This document shows, piece after piece, positions 57,795 through 59,372 of a DNA stretch of 64,000 bases (position 1 is its first letter; the number at the start of each line of letters is the position of its first letter). The notes beneath the pieces were generated by a model, which was not told where the DNA came from, made no database searches, and saw nothing but the letters and a program-made list of their open reading frames with translations. Location of the stretch: assembly GCA_964384805.1 (NCBI GenBank), contig CAYLLO010000001.1:5623-69622 (forward strand), written 5' to 3'. The translations under genes and the position numbers were made by a program. Origin of the DNA: an uncultured Staphylococcaceae bacterium (GTDB lineage Bacteria; Bacillota_I; Bacilli_A; ML615J-28; CAG-313).

Positions 57795-59372
57795 TTAATT
57801 AAAATTATTAATTGCATTTATTATAAACGGACATACCATCATTATTATAAAGATAAGAATTAAACCAACTATGTAATTAAAAATACGTTTTTTAGCTAAT
57901 TCTTTTTCTTCCATTTTAACTGCTAAAATTAACTTAGCTCCCATATAAATACTCCAAATACCTGATGTAATAATCAAGAGAACAATAAAAATTGTCTGTT
58001 GATTATTAATAATTTCTTTAAATTCTGTTTCTACTTTATCTATATTTGTATCAATAAATTTAGTTTCCAATAATCCACAATTTATACATTCATATATTTG
58101 TTTTAATTGATTATTAATAATTAATTCTTCTTTTAAAATATAATAATGATCGGAGGCTGAAATATTACTTTCATAATAATAATTACATCTTTTACATCTA
58201 AATTCTCTAATACCTTCTTTGTCACATGTCGCTTTAGAAATAACTTTGCTTTCAAAATCATGACCTAAAGCTGTAATTATTTCTATACCTTCTTCCATTC
58301 CACAGTTTATGCATACCTTAAATAAGCCTCCATTTTCGGTACAACTCACCTTTTTAACAACTTCATTTATACAATGGCCTAAAGGAGCCACATAATTAGT
58401 TTCCCTCTCCATTAAACATTCCGTACATTGTAATAATGTATATCCTTCATTTATACATGTCGGAGCAATAATTGTTTCAACATAATTGTGTTCAATCATT
58501 TCTAAAAAATTATCATATTTTTGTTCATGACAAGTAATGCATTCATAAATAGTATACCCCTGCGAATAACATGTAGACGCTAAATTACCTACTATTTTAT
58601 AACTATGTACAATACTAAATTTATCATACCCGATATTTCCATAACTATCAATTATTTCTATACTATAATTTCCTTCTTCTGAAATTATTGTGTTTTTTTT
58701 ATAAGGATTGCCATTTATATAAACTTCATATGAATCCCCTGACCATGTTAAATATACGGTATTTAAATCATAATTTCTTATAATATCCACTTTTGGGCTT
58801 CGCTTAATAGTAATTGAATAAGTATCCGAAATATTTCCTGCATAGTCACTTGCATAAAAATAATATGTTCCTTGCGTTTTTAAAAATGTATTATTTTTAT
58901 ATGAAGTATAATTACTTGAATCCGGTGTACAGACATAAACCATATCTAAACCTGACAGTTCATCTACTGCTTCAAAATAAATATATTCGGCATTCGTAAC
59001 ATCACCACTACAATATTCTTGATTATATGAATATATTTTACCAATTGGAGCAATTATATCTAAATAAACATAACTTTCAAGAGAAATATTACCAAAATTA
59101 TCTACTGCTCGAAAAGTATATTTTCCATTTTCAGAAGTTCTAGGAATTATTAAGGAATCAGCATAGCTTTTCCAAGTTGTATCATTAGGACCTTTATATT
59201 GTAAATAAGCTATACCGCTACCTTCATCACTTGCAGAGTAGTAAAAATTTTTATTAGTTGAATCACCATATATAGGTTTTCCATTAGCAGTATAAATACT
59301 TCCAACAGGACAAACAACATCAGAGCTGCTTGCAGAAACCTTTATCAAAAAACTAAATAACGTAAAGAGCAC
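57795..59372 (-). CDS. cell-surface protein: N-terminal Ig-like repeats, three CxxC...GH Cys-rich repeats, C-terminal double-TM anchor
   Basis: Signal-peptide-like N-terminus (GTG start, no clear RBS); three beta-rich repeats ending in D-x-(F/Y)GN-I(S/G); three copies of C-x2-C-x(10-14)-LGH-x(7-12)-C; two C-terminal hydrophobic helices; directly downstream of VirB4. Confidence 0.5.
   Translation of the reverse strand: MLFTLFSFLIKVSASSSDVVCPVGSIYTANGKPIYGDSTNKNFYYSASDEGSGIAYLQYKGPNDTTWKSYADSLIIPRTSENGKYTFRAVDNFGNISLESYVYLDIIAPIGKIYSYNQEYCSGDVTNAEYIYFEAVDELSGLDMVYVCTPDSSNYTSYKNNTFLKTQGTYYFYASDYAGNISDTYSITIKRSPKVDIIRNYDLNTVYLTWSGDSYEVYINGNPYKKNTIISEEGNYSIEIIDSYGNIGYDKFSIVHSYKIVGNLASTCYSQGYTIYECITCHEQKYDNFLEMIEHNYVETIIAPTCINEGYTLLQCTECLMERETNYVAPLGHCINEVVKKVSCTENGGLFKVCINCGMEEGIEIITALGHDFESKVISKATCDKEGIREFRCKRCNYYYESNISASDHYYILKEELIINNQLKQIYECINCGLLETKFIDTNIDKVETEFKEIINNQQTIFIVLLIITSGIWSIYMGAKLILAVKMEEKELAKKRIFNYIVGLILIFIIMMVCPFIINAINNFN

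Follow-up and report, generated by a model that had tools for sequence, protein, structure and literature searches.

Proteins of the Mbov_0395/MMCAP2_0565 (NF045849) and PF18895 families are stand-alone pilin-like proteins of ~70-110 amino acids (aa) with a two-helix hairpin and a basic loop, and those of the Mbov_0395 type are encoded before VirB6. What is known of the function of the Mbov_0395 family by experiment is limited to the essentiality of CDS15 for the transfer of ICEA, an integrative and conjugative element (ICE) of mycoplasmas (PMC6030558). We analysed a 64,000-nucleotide stretch of contig CAYLLO010000001.1 from an uncultured Staphylococcaceae bacterium, hereafter called the window, in which a gene following virB4 codes for a much larger protein ending with such a module. 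The C-terminal 85 residues of this protein, named here the fusion protein, match both family models end to end, the two-helix hairpin with its basic loop is also predicted there, and the neighbours in the window belong to the partner families of Mbov_0395, namely Mbov_0396 (VirB6-like) and Mbov_0397 (VirB4). However, the fusion protein carries an additional ectodomain of 440 residues, predicted to be exported, at its N-terminus, and its gene is located after virB4.

Another close counterpart is the chromosomal type IV secretion system (T4SS) of Patescibacteria (Quinonero-Coronel 2025, PMC12102498; PMC12857230). Like the cluster of the window, it is a monoderm machine of the mating-pair formation type MPF-FATA, is chromosomal and mostly devoid of a relaxase (PMC12102498, PMC12857230), and contains several sequence-divergent PF18895-type (VirB2-like) pilin genes beside virB4 (PMC12102498); the host genomes appear reduced in both cases. 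In contrast, the window lineage belongs to the low-GC Bacilli, its cluster is smaller, with five genes, and one of its pilin paralogues is fused to a large ectodomain with immunoglobulin (Ig)-like domains and Cys-His modules, a fusion that was not found in PMC12102498 or PMC12857230.

Some T4SS operons also encode surface proteins that make cell contact, such as PrgB of pCF10, the thioester adhesin of pLS20 and the CDS14 lipoprotein of ICEA, but these are anchored by LPXTG/sortase or by lipid, whereas the fusion protein would be anchored by its pilin-like hairpin. No sequence homology of the fusion protein to these three proteins was found, and it does not belong with the LPXTG/PrgB-type proteins. 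VirB5 tip proteins and Bartonella Trw also involve a minor, adhesive and fast-evolving component, as the fusion protein would be, and Trw, which has variable VirB2/VirB5 copies and serves adhesion, is, as here, a T4SS without canonical coupling protein and with duplicated and diversified pilin genes. However, VirB5 is a soluble helical protein without a pilin fusion and without homology to the window protein, and Trw comes from a diderm bacterium. In modular type IV pilins, a pilin polymerisation module is combined with a bulky functional module and the product serves as a minor subunit. The fusion protein follows this design principle as well, but their pilin class (class III signal peptide) and their machine are unrelated, and their extra module is C-terminal to the pilin, whereas that of the window protein is N-terminal. 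The parts of the locus are of known kinds: the PF18895/Mbov_0395 module, the OmpL47/BIg domains and a mycoplasma-ICE-type core of VirB4 and VirB6. Neither a T4SS pilin-like module carrying large ectodomains nor a five-gene, vertically inherited, relaxase-less T4SS in a Bacilli lineage was found in the literature and family libraries searched.

Architecture of the fusion protein

The alignments show that the tail of the fusion protein and the small pilin-like protein of its cluster are paralogues. Gene order was read upstream and downstream of the fusion gene in 11 loci of relatives (designated by L-numbers), the small pilin-like gene and the first gene of the cluster being located beyond the end of the window. 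Between the pre-helix and the C-terminal end, the tail can be aligned to the small proteins without any gap (29% identity, E 3e-8). Residues W, G, F and P are invariant in the alignment of fusion tails and small pilins (alignment A3), and a pair of small pilin and fusion carried by an ICE shows 41% identity over 73 aa (E 3.5e-16). Two hydrophobic helices joined by a short basic loop, as in the pilin-like families, were predicted by AlphaFold2 (AF2) at residues 443-483 and 487-524, with hydropathy peaks at 459-467 and 492-507 on either side of the loop KMEEKELAKKR. The two C-terminal transmembrane (TM) helices noticed by an earlier inspection of the letters alone (the sequence-only reading) were thus recovered by both methods.

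The isolated module matched PF18895 (T4SS_pilin) with 26.0 bits (gathering threshold 26.6; E 9.5e-6; profile positions 3-67 of 71) and the whole fusion protein with 21.0 bits, and NF045849 (Mbov_0395 pilin-like) matched the fusion with 20.6 bits (cut-off 40; E 2.6e-4; positions 1-80 of 80). The small proteins of ~100 aa from relatives scored 28.4 bits, above the PF18895 threshold, and 26.5 bits. The term 'pilin' is the database name of this module, and pilin identity is not proven by these matches. A profile of the module finds 2102 proteins, of which the best 120 are all 93-140 aa long and come from metagenome-assembled genomes (MAGs) of Clostridia and other Firmicutes. The fusion departs from the stand-alone size of the PF18895/NF045849 family, with 525 aa and the module at the extreme C-terminus. 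Of the best 150 among 56,723 representative proteins matched by the full-length profile, 33 or more, with lengths of 511-1373 aa, have the pilin module as their exact C-terminal end. Lipoprotein and LPXTG anchoring were rejected, as the fusion sequence contains neither a lipobox nor an LPXTG motif.

The three-part plan proposed by the sequence-only reading, with an Ig-like ectodomain, Cys/His repeats and a pilin-like double-TM tail, was confirmed as the architecture of the protein, including its three beta-rich repeats. Domains 1 and 2 are 35% identical over 77 aa (E 3e-12), whereas the shorter domain 3 has only the C-terminal half, ending in D..GN, in common with them (E 2e-5). NF047446 (OmpL47-type barrel domain) matched two stretches with 55.3 bits, above its cut-off of 40. 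A search of the Protein Data Bank (PDB) with the single fusion sequence gave spurious matches only, and the fusion family profile gave weak matches to the Ig domains of SiiE and R28. The D-x-x-G-N motif and the fold are common to the SiiE-like giant adhesins (BIg domains), to R28 and to the Ig domains of the fusion; the likeness to OmpL47-type and SiiE-like proteins is at the domain level only, the remaining architecture being unrelated.

The Ig-like part is followed by four complete Cys3-His modules (C268-H295, C306-H333, C344-H371 and C383-H409) with a period of 38 aa and the motif H-x10-11-C-x9-C-x2-C, equivalently C-x9-C-x2-C-x12-13-H, and by a degenerate fifth one which keeps only H409...C429-x2-C432. 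The tandem Cys repeats of the sequence-only reading, which described a permuted version of this unit, exist, but their number is four plus a degenerate copy and not three. Modelled alone, the region reached a predicted local distance difference test score (pLDDT) of 94.2, with three strands per module. The Cys and His residues are invariant or at least 90% conserved in 32 homologues, which leaves four conserved potential ligands per module. Three Cys and one His per unit, in a surface protein of a strict anaerobe, suggest a zinc site, and the modules may thus bind zinc and probably be stabilised by it. The region can be read as a rigid spacer module. A zinc-ribbon-like nature, proposed earlier, was not borne out, as no zinc-ribbon family matched the repeat region (best Pfam matches zf-CHY, E 0.25, and Zn_ribbon_3CxxC, E 0.73). 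The module had no match among Pfam or NCBIfam models, and a Foldseek search of the model (pLDDT 94) against the PDB gave no meaningful match (best E 0.018, TM-score at most 0.21).

Nor is the Cys repeat unusual, as had been supposed. Among the 56,723 representative proteins found with the full-length profile, mostly via profile positions ~345-502, are giant surface proteins that reach 7583 aa and contain as many as 31 matched stretches, and the Cys3-His module is among the commonest repeats of Firmicutes-type giant surface proteins. Two LRR_5/Bsp-like surface proteins (P0034 and P0036) have only the Cys-His repeat in common with the fusion.

The 525-aa open reading frame (ORF) of the sequence-only reading was recovered, but on the minus strand, the strand having been left unstated; a plus-strand gene was rejected, the plus translation of 57795-59372 being full of stops. 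It is a genuine gene and no chance ORF, as 37 homologues of the fusion were found in the database search (E down to 0), the AF2 model has a mean pLDDT of 83.7 and dN/dS is low. The latter was 0.18 and 0.21 relative to the two closest relatives, with similar values in the Ig, Cys-His and pilin regions, and the gene is under purifying selection. A pseudogene or decaying remnant was rejected in view of this dN/dS of ~0.2 and of intact orthologues in at least five genomes.

The GTG codon of this ORF lies 39 nt after the virB4 stop (TGA at 59414-59412), as noted previously. The absence of an obvious ribosome-binding site (RBS) and the resulting suggestion of translational coupling with virB4 were however contradicted by a consensus RBS, AAAGGTGA, and a conserved ATA/ATT codon upstream of the GTG. 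This codon, ATA at 59405-59403 in the window, lies 6 nt past AAAGGTGA and is ATT in the two closest relatives (L013 and L014), a synonymous difference, and the peptide ISKILKI encoded in frame between it and the GTG is conserved in a 78%-identical relative (L013/L014 compared). As the RBS is located upstream and ISKILKI is conserved in frame, the true start is probably this ATA/ATT codon. Translation from the ATA would yield a proper signal peptide, MSKILKISFFIVLFTLFSFLIKVSA followed by SSSD, in which the n-region is basic, the h-region has 15 residues and V-S-A forms the cleavage motif; residues 1-16 of the 525-aa ORF have low pLDDT in the AF2 model. In distant relatives (L001:9940-10003, L004:10001-10060 and L007/L012) the start of the fusion gene lies within the 3' end of virB4, in a different frame, and the longer N-terminus of its product reads ..LKKYLKKG.INIKK... 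In the clade of the window a TAA (within 59373-59420, minus strand) cuts off this part and virB4 and the fusion gene are now in the same frame; the longer N-terminal part has been lost in this clade.

Gene order and inheritance of the cluster

The fusion gene follows virB4, directly or after one paralogous fusion gene, in all 11 loci, which represent three kinds of context. The conservation next to virB4 in relatives, proposed as a check by the sequence-only reading, was therefore found throughout, the one intervening gene coding for a 940-aa paralogous fusion in L006. Locus L011 begins just upstream of the fusion gene, with only a partial unannotated gene there, and of virB4 only the 3' end is present in L013 and L014. 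The complete order of small pilin, VirB6-like, VirB4 and fusion was visible in the seven loci with enough upstream DNA (L001, L004, L007, L012, L010, L015 and L016), where the gene of the ~100-aa pilin-like protein immediately precedes the VirB6-like gene and so lies two genes upstream of virB4. The neighbours typical of the PF18895/NF045849 family are thus present, VirB4 in 11 of 11 loci and the VirB6-like protein in the window and seven relatives.

In the first setting, found identically in L001, L004, L012 and L007, whose fusions are 57, 44, 31 and 27% identical to that of the window, genes for an Asp/Glu racemase, a ~440-aa protein, the small pilin, the VirB6-like protein, VirB4 and the fusion are followed by a VCA0040-like gene, truB, ribF, rpsO and pnp. 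In the second (L016) the same core is followed by addB/addA-like genes. The third consists of mobile elements (L006, L010, L011 and L015) with a VirD4 type IV coupling protein (T4CP), TnpV, serine recombinases and Peptidase_S26, and with fusions of 829-1373 aa. A profile search of genome contigs with the 11-sequence alignment gave only two roe-deer gut MAGs. In tblastn searches of 72,556 plasmids, the small pilin had no match and the fusion had only domain-level matches to its ectodomain; the lack of any pilin match indicates that the system is not carried by characterised plasmids.

Chromosomal synteny and co-divergence show vertical inheritance of the cluster in the genomes compared. In L001, L004, L007 and L012, the identity to the window protein was 74, 69, 62 and 62% for VirB4, 77, 68, 61 and 64% for TruB and 62, 49, 44 and 46% for the VCA0040-like protein. 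VirB4 identity thus falls in step with that of the two chromosomal neighbours, which indicates that the cluster has been passed on together with the chromosome ever since the divergence of these genomes. Across the syntenic genomes the fusion is only 27-57% identical whereas the polynucleotide phosphorylase (PNPase) is 92-96% identical, so that the fusion gene evolves faster than any other gene of the neighbourhood, which would be expected if its product is exposed at the surface. Genes for a relaxase, an integrase or a canonical T4CP were found neither in the 57 kb of the window beyond the fusion gene nor within 10 kb on either side in these four relatives. The genes that define an ICE together with T4SS genes (relaxase, coupling protein and recombinase) are thus represented at this cluster by a VirD4-like paralogue only, and the ICE setting suggested by the sequence-only reading gave way to a five-gene chromosomal island that co-diverges with its neighbours.

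The loci on mobile elements indicate that modular pilins are a theme of this T4SS lineage. L010 encodes six proteins with the pilin module, of 99, 109, 283, 287, 829 and 940 aa (L010:3741-6181 and 10001-15370). The 283- and 287-aa proteins each have a signal peptide and an unrelated ectodomain of ~180 aa, and the 829- and 940-aa proteins have Ig/Cys-His ectodomains. At least three different ectodomain types are present among these proteins. A further protein of 1422 aa from the same locus has Ig repeats in common with them and no evident pilin tail.

The first gene of the chromosomal cluster (L001:4594-5925), coding for the ~440-aa protein, is homologous to that of a 552-aa ICE protein (L010:1883-3541), which matches T4SS-DNA_transf weakly (E 7e-4) and TraG-D_C. 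Neither protein contains TM segments or the Walker A lysine motif, and both look like soluble pseudo-ATPases of the VirD4-like kind. The ICE-borne clusters end with a small gene for a Peptidase_S26 (signal-peptidase/TraF-like; L006:19336-19746 and L010:21897-22325), which is absent from the five-gene chromosomal clusters. Its product may be a pilin-processing enzyme.

The interrupted virB4 gene and other features of the window

The features located in the window are listed in the table below. The virB4 gene is divided into two exons by an intron without ORF. The product of exon 1 is 70% identical to the VirB4 of L001 and that of exon 2 is 86% identical to its residues 711-866 (tblastn). Rfam models matched the intron at 60499-60702 (RF02004, 154 bits) and 59888-59972 (RF00029, 56 bits). 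Joining the exons at ANAQM/LL(L)IFRFIEQ gives a VirB4 that is colinear with intron-less homologues (70-86% identity); the canonical GUAUG...AC intron ends imply one extra Leu compared to these homologues. A 188-aa 'ORF' at 59412-59978 starts within intron domains V/VI. Loci L013 (positions 1-40) and L014 (positions 1-60) begin inside the 3' end of the same intron (AAAGAGTTACCTATCAC followed by TATT, compare window 59891-59920), but the insertion is ~35 codons further downstream in virB4, before LFIDSKYPIALDF. The same intron family is thus found at two sites in near-identical strains. The breaks of the L013 and L014 contigs within it suggest that the intron is present in several copies and may still be mobile. 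The VirB4 and VirB6-like proteins of the window are closest to mycoplasma ICE families.

Features of the fusion gene and its neighbours in the window
Feature	Coordinates	Strand	Details
Fusion protein ORF	57795..59372	minus	525 aa from GTG 59372; stop 57797-57795
Pilin-like module	57798..58049	minus	residues 442-525: pre-helix, TM1, basic loop KMEEKELAKKR, TM2
Five 38-aa beta modules (Cys3-His region)	58050..58607	minus	residues 256-441
Shorter beta domain 3	58608..58796	minus	residues 193-255; beta strands in AF2
Ig-like/OmpL47-type beta domain 2	58797..59051	minus	residues 108-192; second NF047446 stretch
Ig-like/OmpL47-type beta domain 1	59052..59324	minus	residues 17-107
Probable true 5' end, ATA start and signal peptide MSKILKISFFIVLFTLFSFLIKVSA	59331..59405	minus	start and cleavage site inferred
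Shine-Dalgarno-like AAAGGTGA	59412..59419	minus	overlaps virB4 stop codon; identical in L013 and L014
virB4 exon 2, C-terminal ~158 codons	59412..59890	minus	tblastn with L001 VirB4
ORF-less group II intron in virB4	59891..60783	minus	~893 nt; boundaries +/- 3 nt
virB4 exon 1, including N-terminal two-TM segment	60784..62917	minus	NF045975 VirB4_plasma, E 9e-119 (exon 1 alone)
VirB6-like polytopic membrane protein	62892..63980	minus	MMCAP2_0566/Mbov_0396 family; NF045848, 112.5 bits (cut-off 90)

The cluster is flanked by housekeeping genes on both sides. The window has 27% GC and, apart from the last 6 kb, is ordinary chromosome with lepA, xerC/D-like, mutS/L, miaA, obg, ppdK, radC, folC, valS, nadE, murD, mraY, murE, a gene for a penicillin-binding protein (PBP), rsmH, pnp, rpsO, ribF, truB, RNase P class B and a T-box. 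An IS110-family transposase in two ORFs (DEDD_Tnp_IS110 N-terminal part, 101 aa; Transposase_20 part, 195 aa) is located at 39875-40921 on the plus strand, between murE and the PBP gene, and is probably a frameshifted pseudogene. On the minus strand, positions 46828-50531 contain a gene for a sigma factor of the extracytoplasmic function (ECF) type (50031-50531), followed by those of a 494-aa protein and of two further proteins (239 and 309 aa) without Pfam match; the genes of the 239- and 309-aa proteins are conserved beside engB in all syntenic relatives.

Possible role of the fusion protein

On balance, the fusion protein is probably a modular pilin-like subunit (adhesin-pilin) of a domesticated, minimal T4SS of the Gram-positive type. 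The adhesin or pilus-associated role suggested by the sequence-only reading was accordingly kept as the best one, and export, topology, zinc binding, fibre incorporation, adhesion and what the system transports are matters of inference. The Sec signal peptide would export a rod of ~440 residues made of eight small beta domains, three Ig-like followed by five Cys3-His modules, which is joined to the N-terminus of a complete copy of the small two-helix pilin-like protein of the system. By the positive-inside rule, the hairpin would lie in the membrane with both termini outside and the basic loop inside. This is the known topology of VirB2-type pilins. With the same contacts as its small paralogue, the hairpin might either dock on the VirB6-like/VirB4 machine or be extracted by it, and the rod would be displayed through the wall, on or at the tip of a short fibre or stalk of the small pilin, where it could contact a target surface or cell. 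The fusion would then be a minor or tip subunit. Because no relaxase or canonical T4CP is encoded in the chromosomal cluster, an apparatus domesticated for adhesion, contact or uptake is favoured over a self-transfer device, a role analogous in its logic to those of Bartonella Trw and the Patescibacteria T4SS.

Several points weigh against this interpretation. An N-terminal extension of 440 residues on every subunit would be sterically hard to pack in a VirB2-type helical fibre, so that the fusion could be at most a minor or tip subunit. The match of the hairpin to pilin models over their full length agrees with the pilin-like double-TM tail seen by the sequence-only reading, but both models remain below their curated cut-offs for the window protein and the VirB2/TrbC type proposed by that reading was not borne out by sequence: hhalign of the module profile (A3) gave a probability of 0.4% with Agrobacterium tumefaciens VirB2 and of 0.7% with F TraA, both queries having been verified against PDB entries, PF04956 matched neither the fusion nor the isolated module, and the module profile found no solved pilin or VirB3 chain in the PDB. 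In addition, no pilus is known for Bacillota T4SSs (PMC12857230), and polymerisation is reported for no PF18895 member (PMC12102498, PMC12857230). Relatives are the only source for the small pilin and for the first gene of the cluster, both of which lie outside the window, virB4 is interrupted by the ORF-less intron, whose splicing is predicted, and other parts of the genome could code for a relaxase or T4CP.

The lack of a known pilus in Bacillota and the bulk of the extension would be accommodated if the protein were a plain membrane-anchored adhesin, whose tail serves as an anchor, perhaps docked beside VirB6/VirB4, and is never extracted or polymerised. Its role would then be that of PrgB, of the thioester adhesin of pLS20 or of the CDS14 lipoprotein of mycoplasmas, which is to keep cells together while the channel is active. 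The ectodomain folds do resemble adhesin stalks, and surface adhesins are essential in related mycoplasma ICEs (PMC6030558). However, a generic anchor does not require a whole small-pilin module, whose pre-helix, invariant W/G/F/P and loop are all kept here, and one ICE has the same module on at least four distinct ectodomains, which speaks for a specific assembly site used in common. We regard a plain adhesin as rather unlikely. The small two-TM proteins and the tail might also be inner-membrane channel subunits of the VirB3, PrgF or TcpD-E kind and not pilins, the ectodomain being a wall-spanning part of the channel and a functional stand-in for the missing VirB8/VirB10-like parts. The mycoplasma counterpart CDS15 has indeed been called VirB3-like (PMC12857230), the module has no similarity to VirB2 or TraA, and neither a VirB8-like nor a VirB1-like gene is present in the cluster. 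On the other hand, the models of VirB3, PrgI and TraL did not match the module and that of TcpE reached only E 2.9, the only models matched being named after pilins (PF18895 and NF045849), and the N-terminal two-TM segment of VirB4 may already occupy the usual place of a fused VirB3. Variable arrays of paralogues are typical of exposed pilins and not of channel subunits, and the ectodomain evolves fast, with a varying number of domains in proteins of 511-1373 aa. We regard channel subunits as quite improbable.

The preferred adhesin-pilin of a domesticated cluster has also to be compared to a mating-pair adhesin of a functional conjugative element which still transfers DNA with a relaxase and coupling protein encoded nearby or elsewhere. 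Longer members of the family do occur in genuine ICE-like loci, together with a VirD4 T4CP, serine recombinases and TnpV, the chromosomal cluster starts with the gene of a remote VirD4-like paralogue, and VirB4 and the VirB6-like protein are closest to mycoplasma ICE families. However, mobility genes are absent from the regions searched, the insertion point is the same and the cluster co-diverges with its neighbours down to 27% fusion identity, and the VirD4-like paralogue has neither TM segments nor the Walker A lysine motif. We consider this explanation very improbable. More tentatively, a low-GC Bacilli lineage of animal guts might have fixed a relaxase-less T4SS of five genes, coding for the VirD4-like pseudo-ATPase, the small pilin, the VirB6-like protein, VirB3/4 and the adhesin-pilin, in which a surface fibre built of a VirB2-analogous pilin is decorated or capped by the modular pilin with its Ig and zinc modules. 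We consider this fuller scenario possible, although somewhat doubtful.

According to a 2025 review, Gram-positive T4SSs lack subunits of the VirB2 and VirB5 types, Patescibacteria being the sole exception. If the fuller scenario is true, the conjugative (T4SS) class of pilins would have its first modular member in the fusion protein, and the cluster would join Patescibacteria as a second and independent example of a monoderm T4SS that was domesticated for contact with cells or for uptake and not for self-transfer. The Cys3-His repeat is itself a very common, extracellular and unannotated domain family, without Pfam or NCBIfam model or solved structure, and would be worth defining. The pilin-like module appears to be reused as a carrier of large surface stalks, in arrays of up to six in ICEs and in a minimal chromosomal machine in one lineage, and the locus is a concrete candidate for how monoderm T4SSs cross the wall and touch their target. 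If the small protein polymerises, the cluster with its five genes would be a tractable system in which to study how a Gram-positive T4SS builds a pilus, and the combination of an ectodomain with a pilin module a design rule for finding T4SS adhesins in metagenomes.

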